A DNA stretch of 17,213 nt from a virus (IMGVR_UViG_2681813004_000008:1-17213); one strand, 5' to 3'. Numbered from the stretch's first letter, positions 9,018 to 17,106 are shown. Notes: generated by a model from the sequence alone, not told the origin. Numbers and translations: made by a program.

Positions 9018-9908
9018 ATGGCAAACACTGCTGAGATATTCAATTTTCCAGTGCCGGATGCGGCACAAAAGGAGCCGCGCGTGGCAGATCTCGATGATGG
9101 TTATACGCGCATTGCAAACGAGTTGCTGGAAGCTGTGATGCTGGCCGGATTAACACAGCACCAGCTTCTGGTCTTTCTGGCTGTCATGCGCAAAACATAT
9201 GGCTTTAATAAAAAACTGGATTGGGTTAGCAACGAGCAACTTTCCGAATTAACCGGGATATTGCCGCACAAGTGTTCTGCTGCAAAAAGTGTTCTGGTAA
9301 AGCGTGGGATTTTTATTCAGAGCGGGCGGAATACCGGCATTAATAATGTGGTCAGTGAATGGTCAACATTACCCGAATCAGGTAAGAAAAATAAAGTTTA
9401 CCTGAAAGAGGTAAATTTACCCAAATCAGGTAAAGGCGTTTACCCGAATCAGGTAAACACAAAAGACAAACTAACAAAAGACAATATAAAACCTTTTTCG
9501 TCCGAGAATTCTGGCGAATCCTCTGACCAACCAGAAAACGATCTTCCTGTGGTGAAACCGGATGCTGCAATTCAGAGCGGCAGCAAGTGGGGGACAGCAG
9601 AAGACCTGACCGCCGCAGAGTGGATGTTTGACATGGTGAAGACCATCGCGCCATCAGCCAGAAAACCGAATTTTGCTGGGTGGGCTAACGATATCCGCCT
9701 GATGCGTGAACGTGACGGACGTAACCACCGCGATATGTGCGTGCTGTTCCGCTGGGCATGCCAGGACAACTTCTGGTCCGGTAACGTGCTAAGTCCGGCC
9801 AAACTCCGCGACAAGTGGACCCAACTCGAAATCAACCGTAACAAGCAACAGGCTGGCGTGACAGCTAGCAAACCAATGGGCATGCCAGGACAACTTCTGG
9901 TCCGGTAA
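9018..9908 (+). CDS. O: Replication initiator O (lambda-type C-terminal domain) with aberrant C-terminus from a frameshifting tandem duplication
   Basis: From MANTAEIFNF... with GGAGG ribosome-binding site; segment AEWMFDMVKTIAPSARKPNFAGWANDIRLMRERDGRNHRDMCVLFRWACQDNFWSGNVLSPAKLRDKWTQLEINRNKQQAGVTASKP matches lambda O as recalled, but the ORF ends ...MGMPGQLLVR after a 124-bp duplication. Confidence 0.85.
   Translation: MANTAEIFNFPVPDAAQKEPRVADLDDGYTRIANELLEAVMLAGLTQHQLLVFLAVMRKTYGFNKKLDWVSNEQLSELTGILPHKCSAAKSVLVKRGIFIQSGRNTGINNVVSEWSTLPESGKKNKVYLKEVNLPKSGKGVYPNQVNTKDKLTKDNIKPFSSENSGESSDQPENDLPVVKPDAAIQSGSKWGTAEDLTAAEWMFDMVKTIAPSARKPNFAGWANDIRLMRERDGRNHRDMCVLFRWACQDNFWSGNVLSPAKLRDKWTQLEINRNKQQAGVTASKPMGMPGQLLVR
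9369..9500 (+). other. Replication origin inside O: four about 19-bp iterons plus an AT-rich region
   Basis: Iterons TTACCCGAATCAGGTAA (9369), TTTACCTGAAAGAGGTAAA (9397), TTTACCCAAATCAGGTAAA (9416), TTTACCCGAATCAGGTAAA (9439), each with TACC...GGTA dyad symmetry, followed by an A-rich tract (9458-9500). Confidence 0.75.
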
Positions 9909-9999
9909 CGTGCTAAGTCCGGCCAAACTCCGCGACAAGTGGACCCAACTCGAAATCAACCGTAACAAGCAACAGGCTGGCGTGACAGCTGGAAAACCA
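9752..9999 (+). repeat. Tandem direct duplication, 2 x 124 bp, in the 3' end of O
   Basis: 9752-9875 and 9876-9999 are identical except for two mismatches near the 3' end (AGCAAACCAA vs GGAAAACCAA). Confidence 0.9.
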
Positions 10000-10043
10000 A
10001 AACTCGACCTGACAAACACTGACTGGATTTACGGGGTGGATCT

Positions 10044-10745
10044 ATGAAAAACATCGCCGCACAGATGGTTAACTTTGACCGTGAGCAGATGCGTCGGATC
10101 GCCAACAACATGCCGGAACAGTACGACGAAAAGCCGCAGGTACAGCAGGTAGCGCAGATAATCAACGGTGTATTCAGCCAGTTACTGGCAACTTTCCCGG
10201 CGAGCCTGGCTAATCGTGACCAGAACGAACTGAACGAAATCCGCCGCCAGTGGGTTCTGGCTTTCCGGGAAAACGGGATCACCACGATGGAACAGGTGAG
10301 CGCCGGAATGCGTGTTGCCCGTCGGCAGAATAGACCATTTCTGCCATCACCCGGGCAGTTTGTTGCATGGTGCCGGGAAGAAGCATCCGTTACCGCCGGG
10401 CTGCCAAACGTCAGCGAGCTGGTTGATATGGTTTACGAGTATTGCCGGAAGCGTGGCCTGTATCCGGATGCAGAGTCTTATCCGTGGAAATCAAACGCGC
10501 ACTACTGGCTGGTTACCAACCTGTATCAGAACATGCGGGCCAATGCGCTGACTGACGCGGAATTACGACGCAAGGCTGCCGATGAACTGACCTGTATGAC
10601 AGCGCGAATTAACCGTGGTGAGGCGATACCTGAACCAGTAAAACAACTTCCTGTCATGGGCGGCAGACCTCTAAATCTATTACAGGCGCTGGCGAAGATC
10701 GCAGAAATTAAAGCTAAGTTCGGACTGAAAGGAGCAAGTGTATGA
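10044..10745 (+). CDS. P: Replication protein P (DnaB helicase loader), 233 aa
   Basis: MKNIAAQMVNFDREQMRRIANNMPEQYDEKPQVQQVAQIINGVFSQLLATFPASLANRDQ... near-identical to lambda P as recalled. Confidence 0.93.
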   Translation: MKNIAAQMVNFDREQMRRIANNMPEQYDEKPQVQQVAQIINGVFSQLLATFPASLANRDQNELNEIRRQWVLAFRENGITTMEQVSAGMRVARRQNRPFLPSPGQFVAWCREEASVTAGLPNVSELVDMVYEYCRKRGLYPDAESYPWKSNAHYWLVTNLYQNMRANALTDAELRRKAADELTCMTARINRGEAIPEPVKQLPVMGGRPLNLLQALAKIAEIKAKFGLKGASV

Positions 10746-11044
10746 CGGGCAAAGAGGCAATTATTCATTACCTGGGGACGCATAAGAGCTTCTGTGCACA
10801 GGACGTTGCCGCGGTAACAGGCGCAACCGTAACCAGCATAAATCAGGCTGCGGCTAAAATGGCGCGGGCAGGAATCCTGGTCGTTGATGGTAAGGTCTGG
10901 CGAACGGTGTATTACCGGTTCGCTACCAGAGAAGAACGGGAAGGAAAGGTGAGCACGAATCTGATTTTTAAGGAGTGTCGCCAGAGTGCCGCGATGAAAC
11001 GGGTACTGAGGGTATATAAAAGAACATCAATGGGAACACAATGA
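10742..11044 (+). CDS. ren: Ren-like protein (rex exclusion escape), 100 aa
   Basis: MTGKEAIIHYLGTHKSFCAQDVAAVTGATVTSINQAAAKMARAGILVVDGKVWRTVYYRFATREEREGK matches lambda Ren; start overlaps the P stop. Confidence 0.8.
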   Translation: MTGKEAIIHYLGTHKSFCAQDVAAVTGATVTSINQAAAKMARAGILVVDGKVWRTVYYRFATREEREGKVSTNLIFKECRQSAAMKRVLRVYKRTSMGTQ

Positions 11045-11111
11045 TGAAACAGGTGAGTTGAGTTCAAACTGTAGTACAATTCTCTCCAGTTTGAACAGGA
11101 AAGAATATGCT

Positions 11112-11444
11112 ATGAACCCTTATATTTATCTTGGTGGTGCAATACTTGCAGAGGTCATTGGTACAACCTTAATGAAGTTTTCAGAAGGTTTTACACGGTT
11201 ATGGCCATCTGTTGGTACAATTATTTGTTATTGTGCATCATTCTGGTTATTAGCTCAGACGCTGGCTTATATTCCTACAGGGATTGCTTATGCTATCTGG
11301 TCAGGAGTCGGTATTGTCCTGATTAGCTTACTGTCATGGGGATTTTTCGGCCAACGGCTGGACCTGCCAGCCATTATAGGCATGATGTTGATTTGTGCCG
11401 GTGTGTTGGTTATTAATTTATTGTCACGAAGCACACCACATTAA
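11112..11444 (+). CDS. emrE: Small multidrug resistance efflux transporter EmrE, 110 aa
   Basis: MNPYIYLGGAILAEVIGTTLMKFSEGFTRLWPSVGTIICYCASFWLLAQTLAYIPTGIAYAIWSGVGIVLISLL... ; four-helix SMR protein with the conserved membrane Glu. Confidence 0.93.
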   Translation: MNPYIYLGGAILAEVIGTTLMKFSEGFTRLWPSVGTIICYCASFWLLAQTLAYIPTGIAYAIWSGVGIVLISLLSWGFFGQRLDLPAIIGMMLICAGVLVINLLSRSTPH

Positions 11445-11474
11445 AATAATTTGTTTCTAAACGACTAAAATATG

Positions 11475-11505
11475 GAGGCTCTTATATTTATATGAGCCTC
11501 GTTTT
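11475..11505 (+). terminator. Rho-independent terminator after emrE
   Basis: GAGGCTC-(12 nt loop)-GAGCCTC hairpin followed by GTTTT. Confidence 0.6.
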
Positions 11506-11698
11506 ATGCTTTTTGTTAATGTCTTTATTTTTTATGTATTCTTTTGTGCTTTCAAGATTATGGCGTAAGAAAATTGCAATACGATTATTGTTGTATATTC
11601 AAGATAATGTGACCTTAATTGTCTTTTTAAATAAAAATTAAACAAAAATTATATCCCACCACTAAGGTTTATAAAAGCATACGTTAGCAGGTGTCACC

Positions 11699-13225
11699 AT
11701 GAAAAAAGCCATAGCATATATGCGATTTTCATCACCAGGTCAGATGTCTGGCGACTCATTAAACCGACAGAGAAGACTTATTGCTGAATGGTTAAAGGTA
11801 AATAGTGATTATTATCTTGATACCATAACATATGAAGATTTAGGATTAAGTGCATTCAAAGGAAAGCATGCACAATCAGGAGCTTTTTCGGAATTTTTAG
11901 ATGCTATAGAGCATGGTTATATATTGCCAGGAACTACATTGTTAGTTGAAAGTCTGGACAGACTTTCAAGAGAAAACGTCGGTGAAGCGATTGAACGTCT
12001 GAAATTGATTTTGAATCACGGTATTGATGTTATAACTCTTTGCGACAATACAGTCTATAATATTGACTCTTTGAATGAGCCATATTCATTAATAAAAGCC
12101 ATACTTATAGCACAAAGGGCAAATGAAGAAAGCGAGATAAAGTCAAGTCGGGTTAAATTATCATGGAAGAAAAAACGGCAGGATGCACTGGAATCAGGTA
12201 CGATTATGACGGCGTCTTGTCCGAGATGGCTCTCCTTAGATGACAAAAGAACGGCTTTTGTTCCAGACCCCGACAGGGTGAAAACTATTGAGCTAATTTT
12301 TAAACTCAGGATGGAAAGGCGCTCATTGAATGCAATAGCCAAGTATTTAAATGATCATGCTGTAAAGAATTTCTCAGGAAAAGAAAGTGCATGGGGACCT
12401 TCTGTAATTGAAAAATTATTAGCGAATAAAACTCTGATAGGTATATGCGTACCTTCATATCGTGCAAGAGGGAAAGGGATAAGTGAAATCGCTGGCTATT
12501 ATCCCAGAGTCATATCAGATGATTTGTTTTACGCTGTACAGGAAATTCGGTTGGCACCTTTTGGTATTAGCAATAGTAGCAAGAATCCTATGCTAATAAA
12601 TCTACTTCGAACAGTTATGAAGTGTGAGGCTTGTGGTAATACCATGATTGTTCATGCGGTATCTGGAAGTTTGCATGGCTATTATGTTTGTCCGATGAGA
12701 AGATTACATCGATGTGACAGGCCATCAATAAAAAGAGATTTGGTTGATTATAATATCATTAATGAATTGCTTTTTAATTGTAGCAAAATTCAACCAGTTG
12801 AAAACAAGAAAGATGCTAATGAAACTTTAGAGTTAAAAATTATTGAGCTTCAGATGAAAATTAATAATTTAATCGTTGCATTGTCTGTCGCGCCTGAAGT
12901 TACCGCTATAGCAGAGAAAATAAGACTATTAGATAAGGAATTACGAAGGGCTTCGGTATCATTGAAAACTTTGAAGAGTAAAGGTGTAAATTCATTCAGT
13001 GATTTTTATGCTATTGACTTAACCAGTAAAAATGGACGAGAGTTATGCCGTACACTTGCCTATAAAACATTCGAAAAAATCATAATTAATACGGATAATA
13101 AAACCTGTGATATCTATTTTATGAATGGCATTGTTTTTAAACACTATCCTTTAATGAAAGTAATATCCGCCCAGCAGGCGATAAGTGCTCTCAAATATAT
13201 GGTTGATGGTGAGATTTATTTCTAA
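11699..13225 (+). CDS. ybcK: Large serine recombinase (resolvase/invertase N-domain + recombinase domain + zinc ribbon), 508 aa
   Basis: N-terminal AIAYMRFSSPGQ (catalytic Ser region), central recombinase region and CEACG...C cysteine cluster; matches DLP12 YbcK in size and position. Confidence 0.85.
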   Translation: MKKAIAYMRFSSPGQMSGDSLNRQRRLIAEWLKVNSDYYLDTITYEDLGLSAFKGKHAQSGAFSEFLDAIEHGYILPGTTLLVESLDRLSRENVGEAIERLKLILNHGIDVITLCDNTVYNIDSLNEPYSLIKAILIAQRANEESEIKSSRVKLSWKKKRQDALESGTIMTASCPRWLSLDDKRTAFVPDPDRVKTIELIFKLRMERRSLNAIAKYLNDHAVKNFSGKESAWGPSVIEKLLANKTLIGICVPSYRARGKGISEIAGYYPRVISDDLFYAVQEIRLAPFGISNSSKNPMLINLLRTVMKCEACGNTMIVHAVSGSLHGYYVCPMRRLHRCDRPSIKRDLVDYNIINELLFNCSKIQPVENKKDANETLELKIIELQMKINNLIVALSVAPEVTAIAEKIRLLDKELRRASVSLKTLKSKGVNSFSDFYAIDLTSKNGRELCRTLAYKTFEKIIINTDNKTCDIYFMNGIVFKHYPLMKVISAQQAISALKYMVDGEIYF

Positions 13226-13689
13226 ATAATGATCTCGGATTTTAAGTTATGCTATGGTGATAAAGTGCAAGACAGAATTAATTATCTTTGACGAAACTTA
13301 ATGGGTAATTACTTTGTTTGCTCCCACAAGCGAGTTTTGTACGGCTGTATTGGGGTAGTAAATGAGCTATACAATCTTAATCATTTGTTAGGTGAGAACT
13401 CTTGGTCGCAGATTCAAATACTGAAAATACGTGACAAATTATTATGAGCAAAATGGTGTATGTCACGTATTTTGAATGGTAGGTTAAAAAATAACACCGA
13501 CTTTCGTAGGTATTACTAATAATAAAGCAGAGTTTTTAGATAGTATCAATGTGCTTTGTGTATATTGTGGCAAATAATTGGGTTGGGGGTACAATTGTGA
13601 TTGCTTTTGCATGAACATTGCGCCTTTATGCATAATGAGATAAAGGAATATCAAATAAAATAACGATAGGTCATAACAAAGAGGTTTTT

Positions 13690-14241
13690 ATGAAAACACT
13701 TATCGTTTCAACTGTATTGGCATTCATAACATTTTCTGCGCAGGCTGCAGCATTTCAGGTCACTAGTAATGAAATAAAAACAGGAGAGCAACTTACAACG
13801 TCTCATGTCTTTTCTGGATTTGGGTGTGAAGGTGGTAATACATCGCCCTCATTAACCTGGTCTGGTGTTCCTGAAGGTACCAAAAGCTTTGCCGTAACTG
13901 TATATGATCCAGATGCACCTACAGGCAGTGGCTGGTGGCATTGGACTGTTGTTAATATTCCAGCAACAGTAACATATTTGCCCGTTGATGCAGGGAGACG
14001 TGATGGAACAAAACTGCCGACTGGTGCTGTTCAAGGCCGAAATGATTTTGGCTATGCTGGGTTTGGTGGCGCATGTCCTCCTAAAGGAGATAAACCACAT
14101 CATTACCAGTTTAAAGTATGGGCTCTAAAAACTGAAAAGATTCCTGTAGATTCTAACTCCAGCGGAGCGTTAGTTGGTTATATGCTTAATGCTAATAAAA
14201 TCGCAACCGCTGAGATAACACCAGTTTATGAGATAAAGTAG
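13690..14241 (+). CDS. ybcL: Secreted PEBP/Raf-kinase-inhibitor-like protein (YbcL/UPF0098 family), 183 aa
   Basis: N-terminal signal peptide MKTLIVSTVLAFITFSAQAAA; PEBP motifs YDPDAP and GGACPPKG...HHYQF. Confidence 0.85.
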   Translation: MKTLIVSTVLAFITFSAQAAAFQVTSNEIKTGEQLTTSHVFSGFGCEGGNTSPSLTWSGVPEGTKSFAVTVYDPDAPTGSGWWHWTVVNIPATVTYLPVDAGRRDGTKLPTGAVQGRNDFGYAGFGGACPPKGDKPHHYQFKVWALKTEKIPVDSNSSGALVGYMLNANKIATAEITPVYEIK

Positions 14242-14250
14242 GGTGAGAGT

Positions 14251-15048
14251 ATGCTGGCAAGAGGTAAGACTAACTTAAAGATCGAAGAAATACGGATGCA
14301 TAAACATCATGAGATTCATAGGGTTAAGCCTCTTATGCCAGCTTTGTGTCGTATCCGTCAGGGAAAGAAAGTTATCAATTGGGAGACGCATACTTTAACT
14401 GTTGATAATAATCAAATAATATTATTTCCTTGTGGTTATGAATTTTATATTGAGAATTATCCTGAAGCAGGGCTTTATCTTGCAGAAATGCTTTACTTAC
14501 CCATTGATTTAATTGAGAGTTTCCAAAAACTTTATACGGTAACTGATCAAATACGTAACAAAACAAGTTTCTTTTTACCTCAGAATCCTGAGTTAATATA
14601 TTGTTGGGAGCAACTAAAAACATCTGTTTCCCGAGGCTTCTCAACTAAAATTCAGGAGCACTTAGCAATGGGCGTTCTACTTTCGTTAGGAGTGAATCAT
14701 GTTAATCATTTACTTTTATCATATAGTAAACAATCATTGATAAGTCGTTGTTATAACCTGCTGCTATCCGAACCCGGCACAAAATGGACAGCAAACAAGG
14801 TTGCTCGATATCTCTACATTTCTGTTTCTACATTACATCGCCGTCTAGCAAGCGAGGGGGTAAGTTTCCAAAGTATACTGGACGATGTGAGGTTAAATAA
14901 TGCGTTGTCTGCTATACAAACGACGGTAAAACCTATAAGCGAGATTGCCAGAGAAAATGGTTATAAGTGTCCTTCTCGTTTTACTGAAAGATTTCATAAT
15001 CGTTTTAATATAACACCAAGAGAGATAAGAAAAGCTTCCAGAGAGTAA
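14251..15048 (+). CDS. ybcM: AraC/XylS-family transcriptional regulator, 265 aa
   Basis: C-terminal double HTH ([36 protein letters not shown]...[19 protein letters not shown]). Confidence 0.85.
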
Positions 15049-15112
15049 AAGTGTTTTAAGAAGGAGCAATTCTATCGATTTTGATTTTGGGAAATCAACA
15101 CGGCATAATTAT

Positions 15113-15141
15113 GTCACCGGAGCCTGAACAACTCCGGTGAC
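15113..15141 (+). other. Perfect 10-bp GC-rich stem-loop (terminator or regulatory hairpin) between ybcM and ylcH
   Basis: GTCACCGGAG-cctgaacaa-CTCCGGTGAC; no T-tract follows on the plus strand. Confidence 0.45.
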
Positions 15142-15164
15142 TTCTGCGCTAAACGGGGACGTTT

Positions 15165-15266
15165 ATGCGCACATACAATCCAAACTCTCTTCTCCCTTCA
15201 CAGATGCAGAAATGCACCTGCAATTCTTTGCATCTAGCGTTTGACCTCTGCGGAGGTGAAGCGTGA
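15165..15266 (+). CDS. ylcH: Small protein YlcH-like (33 aa)
   Basis: ATG...[33 protein letters not shown]; stop overlaps the GTG start of ybcN. Below the 60-aa cutoff of the supplied ORF track. Confidence 0.45.
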
Positions 15267-15718
15267 ACCTCTCACAAGACGGCATCAAATTACATCGCGG
15301 CAACTTCACCGCTATCGGTCGGCAGATCCAGCCTTATCTGGAGGAGGGCAAATGCTTTCGCATGGTGCTTAAACCGTGGCGTGAGAAACGCAGTCTTTCC
15401 CAGAATGCACTCAGCCACATGTGGTACAGCGAAATCAGTGAATACCTCATCAGCAGGGGTAAAACGTTCGCCACTCCAGCTTGGGTAAAAGATGCTCTCA
15501 AACACACATATCTCGGTTATGAAACCAAAGACCTGGTTGATGTCGTAACCGGTGATATCACCACTATCCAGTCGTTACGCCATACCTCCGATCTTGATAC
15601 CGGAGAGATGTATGTCTTCCTGTGTAAGGTTGAAGCCTGGGCGGTGAATATTGGCTGCCACCTGACTATTCCGCAGAGCTGCGAGTTCCAGCTGCTCCGC
15701 GACAAGCAGGAGGCGTAA
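15263..15718 (+). CDS. ybcN: NinB/YbcN-family protein, 151 aa
   Basis: GTG start after [16 protein letters not shown] motif shared with lambda NinB (Orf); conserved nin-region position. Confidence 0.8.
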
Positions 15719-15888
15719 TGGCTACACCGCTTATTCGTGTCATGAACGGACACATCTACAGAGTATCAAATCGTCGTAAGCGTAAGCCTGAGCTGAAGCC
15801 ATCCGAAATACCAACACTGCTCGGATATACCGCTAGCCTGGTTGATAAAAAATGGTTGCGACTGGCAGCAAGGAGGAATCATGGCTGA
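15718..15888 (+). CDS. ninE: NinE-like small protein, 56 aa
   Basis: [56 protein letters not shown]; start overlaps ybcN stop (TAATG). Not in the supplied ORF track. Confidence 0.75.
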   Translation: MATPLIRVMNGHIYRVSNRRKRKPELKPSEIPTLLGYTASLVDKKWLRLAARRNHG

Positions 15889-16171
15889 TTTGAGAAAAGC
15901 AGCGCGTGGTCGGGAATGCCAGGTAAGAATCCCTGGCGTATGTAATGGCAATTCTGAAACGTCTGTACTGGCACATATCCGGCTGGCTGGATTGTGCGGT
16001 ACCGGTATCAAACCGCCAGACCTGATTGCCACCATTGCATGTTCTGCCTGCCACGACGAAATCGACCGCCGCACACATTTTGTCGATGCTGCATATGCAA
16101 AAGAATGCGCGCTGGAAGGTATGGCGAGAACACAGGTTATCTGGCTGAAAGAGGGGGTTATTAAGGCGTGA
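15881..16171 (+). CDS. ybcO: YbcO-like (DUF1364) putative zinc-binding nuclease, 96 aa
   Basis: [24 protein letters not shown]...[11 protein letters not shown] with cysteine/histidine cluster; AGGAGG ribosome-binding site; overlaps ninE stop. Confidence 0.8.
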
Positions 16172-16530
16172 ATACCTACAGTATCACATTACCCTGGCCT
16201 CCGAGCAATAATCGCTATTACCGCCATAATCGCGGGCGCACGCACGTCAGTGCAGAGGGGCAGGCATACCGCGATAACGTCGCCCGAATCATTAAAAACG
16301 CAATGCTGGATATCGGCCTGGCTATGCCTGTGAAAATCCGCATTGAGTGCCACATGCCGGATCGCCGTCGCCGTGACCTGGATAATCTGCAAAAAGCCGC
16401 TTTTGACGCACTCACCAAAGCAGGTTTCTGGCTGGATGATGCTCAGGTCGTTGATTACCGCGTTGTGAAGATGCCTGTTACCAAAGGTGGGAGGCTGGAA
16501 CTGACCATCACCGAAATGGGGAATGAATGA
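16168..16530 (+). CDS. rusA: Holliday-junction resolvase RusA, 120 aa
   Basis: (GTG start) [46 protein letters not shown]...[30 protein letters not shown] matches RusA. Confidence 0.93.
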
Positions 16531-16667
16531 TGTTTGAGTTTTATATGGCAGAACTTCTTCGCCACCGCTGGGGGCATCTGCGCTTATATCGTTTCCCCGG
16601 TTCTGTTTTGACCGATTACCGAATACTGAAGAATTACGCCAAAACCCTGACAGGAGCAGGAGTATGA
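16527..16667 (+). CDS. ylcG: Small protein YlcG-like (46 aa)
   Basis: [46 protein letters not shown]; overlaps the rusA stop. Confidence 0.55.
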
Positions 16668-16752
16668 AGTCAGAGATAACAATCAACTAATACTGTTTTG
16701 TTGATTTTTGCTTGTAATTGGCGTTCTGGTCTGATTTTTGTGGAGTAAGTTG

Positions 16753-17106
16753 ATGCGTGATATTCAGATGGTTCTTGAGCGTTGGGGAGCGTGGGCGGCT
16801 AATAATCATGAAGATGTGACCTGGTCGTCCATTGCCGCCGGTTTTAAGGGATTAATTACTTCAAAAGTAAAATCTCGCCCGCAATGTTGTGACGATGACG
16901 CGATGATTATTTGCGGGTGCATGGCCCGTCTGAAAAAGAACAACAGCGATTTGCACGATTTATTAGTAGATTATTATGTAGTCGGTATGACATTCATGTC
17001 ACTGGCAGGTAAGCATTGCTGCTCTGATGGTTATATCGGGAAAAGGTTACAGAAGGCTGAGGGCATAATTGAAGGGATGTTAATGGCATTAGATATCCGG
17101 TTAGAG
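16753..17106 (+). pseudogene. quuD: Q-like late antiterminator (QuuD type), 3' end replaced by IS1
   Basis: [90 protein letters not shown]... ; the frame continues into IS1 at 17107 and ends with an IS1-encoded tail. Confidence 0.75.

Follow-up and report, generated by a model that had tools for sequence, protein, structure and literature searches.

The 17,213-nucleotide viral stretch IMGVR_UViG_2681813004_000008:1-17213, referred to here in its full length as the window, carries between the lambda-type gene ren and the nin-type genes an AT-rich block of about 4 kb (11058-15150), which an original prediction made from the DNA alone had read as acquired cargo that was once an independently mobile or invertible cassette, on account of the large serine recombinase encoded within it. 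We find that this block is best understood as the already annotated, known and ordinary accessory ("moron") region of DLP12-type prophages, emrE-ylcJ-ybcK-ybcL-ybcM, that it occupies a slot for cargo bounded on one side by the 3' end of ren and on the other by conserved sequence upstream of ylcH-ybcN, and that it is a mosaic, a reading to which we assign a probability of roughly 0.8.

The identification starts from the close match between the flagged region and many Escherichia coli chromosomes (99.9% identity), in which ren, emrE, ylcJ, ybcK, ybcL, ybcM, a small open reading frame (ORF) and ybcN are annotated. By blastn, window 10831-17106 is 99.4% identical to the cryptic prophage DLP12 of K-12 MG1655, and a prophage of strain C5, in which "protein ren" is annotated, is 99.7% identical to the window. 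The gene order ren-emrE-ylcJ-ybcK-ybcL-ybcM-ylcH-ybcN agrees in order, spacing and sequence with renD-emrE-ylcJ-ybcK-ybcL-ybcM-ylcH-ybcN of K-12 (b0542-b0547), and the two prophages share the argU integration site and an intD-type integrase. Reading 3' of the tRNA gene, the window holds a tyrosine integrase, recombination genes, a cI-like repressor, cro, O, P and ren, followed by the flagged block, the nin-type genes and rusA. In K-12, DLP12 has suffered an IS3 insertion in renD and large deletions, whereas the prophage in the window retains its recombination genes, cI/cro, O, P and an uninterrupted ren. The window is thus a DLP12-like lambdoid prophage at the tRNA-Arg gene argU, less decayed than its K-12 counterpart. 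At least 80% of the block is found in 671 of the 5426 complete E. coli genomes. Of the isolated phages, three (PhiR68_2, PhiR34_1 and PhiR70_1) carry it whole. The features on which the analysis relies are the following.

546-622: tRNA-Arg(tct) gene, argU
638-1801, minus strand: tyrosine integrase ORF, matching intD
10742-11044, plus strand: ren (100 amino acids), left flank, as annotated in the strain C5 prophage
11018-15079, plus strand: variable cargo slot as filled here, GC 0.363, from blastn breakpoints against Perceval, PhiR5_1, PhiR30_1, MS6198 and ev243
11112-11444, plus strand: emrE, SMR efflux pump, 110 amino acids (Pfam Multi_Drug_Res, 3.4e-35; RefSeq annotation in K-12 and C5)
11452-13534, plus strand: ylcJ-ybcK segment, 2083 bp, absent from CFT073-type emrE-ybcL-ybcM loci
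11475-11505, plus strand: terminator-like hairpin GAGGCTC-N12-GAGCCTC followed by GTTTTAT, after emrE and overlapping the ylcJ start, read by eye
11492-11641, plus strand: ylcJ, 49 amino acids (Pfam YlcJ, 2.4e-35; b4733 in K-12, ylcJ in C5)
11699-13225, plus strand: ybcK, large serine recombinase, 508 amino acids (Pfam Resolvase, Recombinase, Zn_ribbon_recom)
13424-13473, no strand: perfect 13-bp inverted repeat AAAATACGTGACA-N24-TGTCACGTATTTT
13535-13689, plus strand: ybcL upstream (promoter) region, common to ybcK-less loci by alignment with CFT073, Shigella and E. albertii
13690-14241, plus strand: ybcL, periplasmic PEBP/RKIP-family protein, 183 amino acids (Pfam PBP, 3.2e-42; annotation)
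14251-15048, plus strand: ybcM, AraC-family regulator, 265 amino acids (Pfam HTH_18, 9.5e-17, residues 185-261)
15080-15262, plus strand: start of the nin-side backbone, with promoter-like element, 10-bp hairpin and ylcH start, conserved in Perceval, PhiR5_1 and PhiR30_1
15081-15109: promoter-like TTGATT-17-CATAAT
15113-15141: 10-bp hairpin GTCACCGGAG-N9-CTCCGGTGAC, exact
15165-15266, plus strand: ylcH
15263-15718, plus strand: ybcN (NinB-like), right flank, by annotation, with a weak Pfam NinB match (1.3e-4)

Most of the gene content had been recognized correctly: the ORFs at 11699-13225, 13690-14241 and 14251-15048 and the pump ORF ending at 11444 are all confirmed, with Pfam families in agreement, and so is the AT-richness, with a GC content of 0.365 for 11058-15150 against 0.501 in the left and 0.487 in the right flank. 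For emrE, the assignment as an efflux pump holds, as the protein has the length, the Pfam domain and the Glu14 (within MNPYIYLGGAILAEV) of an SMR pump, but the start proposed at 11058 reflects an upstream TTG extension of a gene whose annotated ATG lies at 11112, and the spacer 11445-11698, taken to be free of ORFs, contains the annotated ylcJ. YbcL combines its PEBP domain with a signal-peptide-like N-terminus, MKTLIVSTVLAFITFSAQA, and is annotated in K-12 as "periplasmic protein YbcL". All four genes, emrE, ybcK, ybcL and ybcM, are under purifying selection, with ratios of nonsynonymous to synonymous substitution (dN/dS) of 0.01-0.13; the values are 0.01-0.03 for emrE, compared with CFT073 and E. 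albertii, and 0.06-0.09 for ybcL.

The limits of the cargo could be placed by comparison with a phage collection in which 160 records match the region 9900-16600. On the left, phages whose slot is empty or differently filled cease to match at about 11004-11017, inside the final codons of ren, and on the right Perceval, PhiR5_1 and PhiR30_1, with three differing cargoes, all regain homology at 15079/15080. The lambda-like phage ev243 has an empty slot, with ninB only 73 bp after ren, which upholds, for a close relative of the flanks, the statement that lambda lacks such an insert. Elsewhere the slot holds Rha and small ORFs (PhiR5_1), an acyltransferase and a lipoprotein (PhiR30_1), the PD-lambda-1 defence gene (PhiR26_1), emrE-ybcK followed by a reverse-strand alpha/beta hydrolase (the Perceval/4A7 group), or emrE-ylcJ-ybcK followed by a P22AR-C protein (strain MS6198). 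Since phages without any serine recombinase use the same edges, these do not depend on YbcK, and the interval from ren to ylcH is a general cargo slot. Cargo would be swapped between phages by homologous recombination in the conserved flanks, which would account both for the shared breakpoints and for the alternative contents of the slot.

Acquisition of accessory cargo between ren and nin, the most general element of the original prediction, is thereby borne out: the block is AT-rich, present or absent in otherwise collinear lambdoid phages and not universal among relatives, in a slot that is variably filled or empty. As extra DNA between conserved phage genes, missing in close relatives and of atypical composition, the block has what characterizes a phage moron. 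Like the lambdoid morons bor, lom, and the EmrE and SitABCD of Perceval, the block consists of AT-rich extras between conserved modules, variable among relatives, of benefit to the host and not the phage, and EmrE has been reported to be transcribed in the LF82 lysogen. It differs from them in that several units are stacked in one slot, and in that one of these units is a recombinase gene, which is atypical as host-benefit cargo.

A stronger claim, that the whole block of about 4 kb is or was a single integrative or excisable cassette, moved by YbcK and with att sites at its ends, can draw on the intact large serine recombinase inside an AT-rich block with sharp comparative boundaries, and on an E. 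albertii copy of emrE-ybcLM that spans nearly the same outer limits (window 11011-15153). However, a search for direct and inverted repeats at the block edges gave only short, chance-level matches, recombinase-free cargo uses the same edges, and the copies in other genomic contexts are exactly those without ybcK. Moreover, ybcK lies 680 bp and 1.85 kb from the edges, as opposed to about 100-700 bp from the junction for its relatives at prophage ends. A site-specific mobile cassette would recur elsewhere in the genome, recombinase included, with exact junctions and with att sites or repeats at its ends, which the block in the contigs and genomes examined does not do, and we consider this explanation very doubtful. 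The comparison with block-lacking lambdoid prophages, which had been proposed as a check, thus delivers the boundaries but no att-like repeats, and with generic edges, a composite build and a single orientation (see below), the description of the whole block as one recombinase-driven mobile or invertible cassette is not supported.

Several candidate recombination sites were considered within the block. The 13-mer ATTT[G/A]TTTCTAAA occurs at 11449 and 13214 and so brackets ylcJ-ybcK, but some 50 such pairs would be expected by chance by our own estimate, and it was set aside. A search of the window for an ssrA-like attP returned only a 13-nucleotide chance match in the O gene, with nothing ssrA-like near ybcK. 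The perfect 13-bp inverted repeat at 13424-13473 spans 50 bp, begins 199 bp after the ybcK stop and is attP-like in size; we estimate that about 0.04 such repeats would arise by chance, and the stretch is found only in the DLP12-type arrangement. The surrounding interval 13240-13660 is unbroken and collinear in 675 of 677 genomes, and no counterpart of the repeat was found beside ybcK in Perceval- and MS6198-type phages or in two distant homologues. Because it is not conserved with ybcK and no genome junction falls inside it, we reject it for now as the attP of YbcK. Among the edge repeats, the ssrA-like sequence and this inverted repeat, no cognate att site adjoining ybcK was thus found.

The same inverted repeat, and the membership of YbcK among the serine recombinases, are also what could be invoked for a DNA invertase that flips part of the block as a phase-variation switch. 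Yet YbcK has a large architecture (508 amino acids, with a zinc ribbon and an A118-like C-terminal domain), unlike the small invertases of the Hin/Gin type, and no inverted repeats surround any gene-sized segment. Orientation variants of the block were absent from 80 viral contigs, all of which show one orientation, and the collinearity of 13240-13660 across genomes likewise speaks against inversion, leaving this the least credible of the explanations considered.

The moron region is not a single unit. Among the spread of E. coli matches listed, a large class covers 48% of the query in two pieces spanning about 2.08 kb, and every member of this class among the matches listed, one Shigella copy included, carries emrE-ybcL-ybcM without ybcK. 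At the CFT073 locus the order is fliE, emrE, ybcL, ybcM, an ompC-like porin gene and yedK, with neither ylcJ nor ybcK. Mapping of the indel by blastn of the window against L021 (CFT073), L108 and L105 shows that in CFT073 window 11036-11451 is joined to 13535-15265 with 4 bp between, so that 11452-13534 (2083 bp) is extra in the window. In E. albertii, emrE-ybcL-ybcM adjoins a P4-like integrase at a different chromosomal site and corresponds to window 11011-11445 plus 13592-15153, with a gap at 11446-13591, and a Plesiomonas genome has ybcL-ybcM alone. The upstream genes, emrE-ylcJ-ybcK, occur also with other downstream genes, as in Perceval and MS6198. A scan of viral contigs with the family alignment, which returned only copies of at least 97% identity and therefore covers E. 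coli variants, showed emrE-ylcJ-ybcK in one order and orientation in 75 of 80 contigs; two of the remaining five start at ybcK, with no match to ylcJ-emrE, and the other three break off with ybcK or shortly beyond it. Contig L049 runs out at the ybcK stop codon. Between ybcK and the backbone there are anywhere from 324 to 3190 bp, and in the contigs and genomes examined ybcK has emrE and ylcJ upstream wherever the contig reaches that far.

These comparisons show that the block is a mosaic of two units, one consisting of emrE and ybcL-ybcM and the other being the 2.1-kb ylcJ-ybcK segment that lies between them. The emrE-ybcL-ybcM unit, which comprises an SMR pump and a periplasmic PEBP protein with its AraC-type autoregulator and also stands alone, is probably the older of the two. 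Of the whole block, the ylcJ-ybcK part alone has the behaviour of a discrete indel, and even there the search for an att site came back empty.

As to the direction of this indel, divergence rises from the DLP12 type through the fli locus to E. albertii, and given this order one gain is slightly more parsimonious than two losses, for which reason we lean, by a little, towards insertion of ylcJ-ybcK into emrE-ybcLM. The converse, an ancestral ylcJ-ybcK that was removed by separate deletions, or by the action of YbcK itself, wherever emrE-ybcL-ybcM now occurs alone, is a possibility we take seriously without favouring it. Each of the two ybcK-less loci is what decay has left of a prophage, with most of the phage genes gone, the AATAAT microhomology at the CFT073 junction fits a deletion, and the edges of the gap differ (11451/13535 in CFT073, 11445/13592 in E. 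albertii) as they would for separate events. On the other hand, with E. albertii, the fli locus and the DLP12 type taken as the tree in that order, deletion requires two losses against one gain, and each loss would have had to stop almost exactly short of emrE on one side and of the ybcL promoter on the other.

The stand-alone locus of CFT073 resembles the window in emrE (92% nucleotide identity) and ybcL-ybcM (89%), in the ybcL promoter, in ylcH and in a trace of the quuD-nmpC junction, but lacks ylcJ-ybcK and all phage backbone genes, and is far commoner than the full block. Between 9001 and 11217 of L021 the locus keeps ylcH together with a 67-bp trace of the post-quuD region beside the nmpC/ompC-like porin gene. 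Because these traces remain, it is to be read as what extensive deletion has left of a DLP12-like prophage, fixed after fliE in the listed E. coli genomes of the CFT073 type. A different kind of remnant is seen in L018 and L019, from an E. coli prophage next to ybhC in the neighbourhood of the lambda att site. It is rearranged, with the end of P abutting an inverted gam-bet fragment, after which come ren-emrE-ylcJ and a ybcK allele that has lost 30 internal codons (478 amino acids, 91% identity).

The recombinase itself has the domains that define a large serine recombinase (Pfam Resolvase, 5e-19; Recombinase, 5e-14; Zn_ribbon_recom, 8e-8). Residues R9, S11, D87, R88 and R91 are invariant in alignments of 32 and 23 members, and the zinc-ribbon cysteines C309, C312, C331 and C339 are nearly invariant in the former and invariant in the latter. 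With a profile built from the YbcK family, positions 190-477 align to the C-terminal domain of the A118 integrase (E=3e-16) and the N-terminus matches the catalytic domain of TP901-1; a direct phmmer search of YbcK against PDB sequences gave no match. Between E. coli phage variants, dN/dS for ybcK is 0.09-0.12. YbcK thus looks like an intact large serine recombinase, neither catalytically dead nor decaying, and a dead recombinase, named beforehand as what would undo the original prediction, is not what its conserved catalytic residues and low dN/dS suggest. Like the large serine integrases A118/LI, TP901-1, phiC31 and Bxb1, it has a catalytic domain with a serine nucleophile, a recombinase domain, a zinc ribbon and a C-terminal region containing a coiled coil, and it has relatives at prophage ends. 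Unlike them, it lies inside a prophage that integrates by a tyrosine integrase, no attP or attB was found for it, and its similarity to the solved integrases is visible only with the family profile.

Homologues of YbcK occur at 40-61% identity across Enterobacterales. In a positional survey of these, from which P0029 was left out as its locus was not located, homologues lie at prophage ends in Atlantibacter (L007 9531-10432, 540 bp from ssrA), Yersinia, Erwinia (by lepA) and Ewingella, and probably also in Kluyvera, while one is found in a mobilisable island. A copy of the ssrA 3' end is present 110-225 bp downstream of the homologue in Kluyvera (28 nucleotides, L109 9680-9707) and in Yersinia (18 nucleotides, L009 9737-9754). 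Counting Atlantibacter, three of these homologues have ssrA 3'-end sequence downstream, at 100-540 bp. From this ssrA adjacency and these 3'-end copies at terminal homologues, the family looks like one of ssrA-directed prophage integrases. In the window, YbcK would be an extra, orphan integrase gene and surplus to integration, for which a tyrosine integrase is already present at argU; Perceval, too, has a tyrosine integrase.

Some observations sit uneasily with the view of the block as an ordinary moron region with a stranded recombinase in it. The direction of the indel is unsettled, as a loss of the segment is conceivable in each of the two ybcK-less loci, both being degraded prophage remnants, and the AT-rich junctions are blurred, with nothing but the AATAAT microhomology. 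In two unrelated lambdoid phages, Pantoea L011 and contig L017, a YbcK-family gene is likewise internal and lies between Q and the replication genes, which hints at a role beyond that of a stranded integrase, and strong purifying selection on ybcK fits poorly with a functionless passenger. One could therefore speculate that YbcK-type recombinases are active, selected parts of lambdoid phages that have a tyrosine integrase, and that they mobilise a cassette of the ylcJ-ybcK type into early-right regions or provide a second route of integration, for example at ssrA. This notion, which we judge unlikely, is kept alive by the intact state of ybcK, its dN/dS of about 0.1, the discrete indel and the internal positions of its relatives in the two unrelated phages.

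A further point is that in one of these two, the lambdoid contig L017, the YbcK homologue (59% identity) is bracketed, along with KGG and DinI genes, by a 229-bp direct duplication (7623-7851/10609-10831). What is duplicated is the 5' portion of a nin gene of the DUF1367 family, with 82% nucleotide and 97% amino acid identity, the copy upstream being truncated and the one downstream intact. The arrangement is suggestive, and we considered the duplication as proof of site-specific insertion, but rejected it as such, as serine integrases are not known to need or create long homologous duplications and phage-phage homologous recombination explains it equally well.

In the literature, EmrE is a characterised SMR pump and a transcribed moron of phage Perceval in the lysogen (10.1101/2022.10.28.514194), and has been noted in lambda phages of the infant gut (PMC6969025). 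YbcL is described in the literature as a periplasmic RKIP homologue. YbcM is reported to bind upstream of ybcLM by ChIP-exo and to autoregulate ybcLM, and deletion of ybcM lowers survival of peroxide treatment (PMC8464067). For ybcK, a Rho-dependent terminator in the 5' leader, within the spacer 11445-11698, limits transcription (PMC4150792), the gene lies in a region bound by Hfq/polyphosphate according to the literature, and its overexpression is reported to raise sabinene tolerance. Going by published work, the genes of the block would serve the lysogen, through efflux and stress response, and not phage growth.

One may nevertheless ask whether the block is an unrecognised anti-phage defence island, given that PhiR26_1 carries PD-lambda-1 in the same slot, that ren is named an exclusion protein in the records of PhiR5_1, PhiR30_1 and PhiR26_1, and that the window has a defence-like kinase/phosphatase pair beside cI. 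The PADLOC models, however, gave no match at E <= 0.01 for EmrE, YlcJ, YbcK, YbcL, YbcM or YbcN, and EmrE, YbcL and YbcM have published roles outside defence, so that we hold a defence island to be extremely improbable.

The hairpin at 15113-15141, which had been taken as the end of the cargo, is indeed a perfect 10-bp hairpin but lies 33 bp inside the shared backbone. By our estimate, about 0.5 hairpins of this length would be expected by chance in roughly 4.7 kb of AT-rich DNA, and we regard it as real because of its conservation in Perceval, PhiR5_1 and PhiR30_1 despite their differing cargo, not because of its length. The region folds with -27.1 kcal/mol (z = -2.8). As an intrinsic terminator it was rejected, with no T-run after it and a silent terminator scan, and an Rfam scan of the whole window matched the tRNA only, so that neither the hairpin nor the 13-bp inverted repeat fits a known RNA family. 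The backbone at 15081-15141 opens with a small palindrome and the promoter-like TTGATT-17-CATAAT, followed by the hairpin; although the stem is not identical in PhiR5_1 and PhiR30_1, most of its positions could still pair there, via G-U, if it is taken as plus-strand RNA. The motif CCTGAACAAC, which is loop-like, is also found upstream of a nin gene in L017. The segment 15081-15141 may act as a transcript-level signal ahead of ylcH-ybcN.

Other signals in the block are of the same small scale. The terminator scan missed the hairpin at the end of emrE (11475-11505) because its loop exceeds 8 nucleotides, and promoter-like matches, at 17 against 15.3 expected in shuffles, do not exceed chance. 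Among the genes of the block, expression in a lysogen is reported for the emrE homologue of Perceval only. Between the ren stop and the emrE start, at 11062-11096, there is a 13-nucleotide inverted repeat with 12 of 13 positions complementary, GTTCAAACTGTAG-N9-CTCCAGTTTGAAC, also present in Perceval, which may serve emrE as a terminator or in its regulation.

Two further features lie outside the block. A second AT-rich insert (5737-7202, minus strand, GC 0.357) is situated directly downstream of the cI-like repressor, the position that rexAB occupy in lambda. It encodes a PP2C-type phosphatase (247 amino acids) and a Ser/Thr protein kinase (241 amino acids) that matches the PADLOC models mad6, PD-T4-6 and Stk2, with values up to 3e-39; the C5 prophage, although collinear in other respects, does not have this insert, and megablast against the phage collection gave no match to it. 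The two genes are probably a kinase-based exclusion or defence pair. At 3278-4672, on the minus strand, a 464-amino-acid ORF fuses Bet (RecT domain) in frame to an Exo (YqaJ domain) that lacks about its first 22 residues, and the best E. coli matches are all 68 bases longer, with separate bet and exo, so that this is probably a rare deletion disabling the Red system of the prophage.

For E. coli and its lambdoid phages, the genes of the block, their order and their prophage origin are textbook K-12 annotation, with EmrE noted before as phage cargo, and in this respect there is little discovery value. The slot, with its precise edges and with defence genes in relatives, is a good site at which to seek new cargo, and the emrE-ybcL-ybcM unit is an old one that has outlived its phage, being much commoner in E. 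coli as a stand-alone remnant than as part of the full block. YbcK is a conserved, intact gene of the integrase family whose relatives appear to target ssrA, which poses a small, testable question; if the speculation above on active, selected YbcK-type recombinases did prove right, the 2.1-kb segment would be a mobile element living inside phages.

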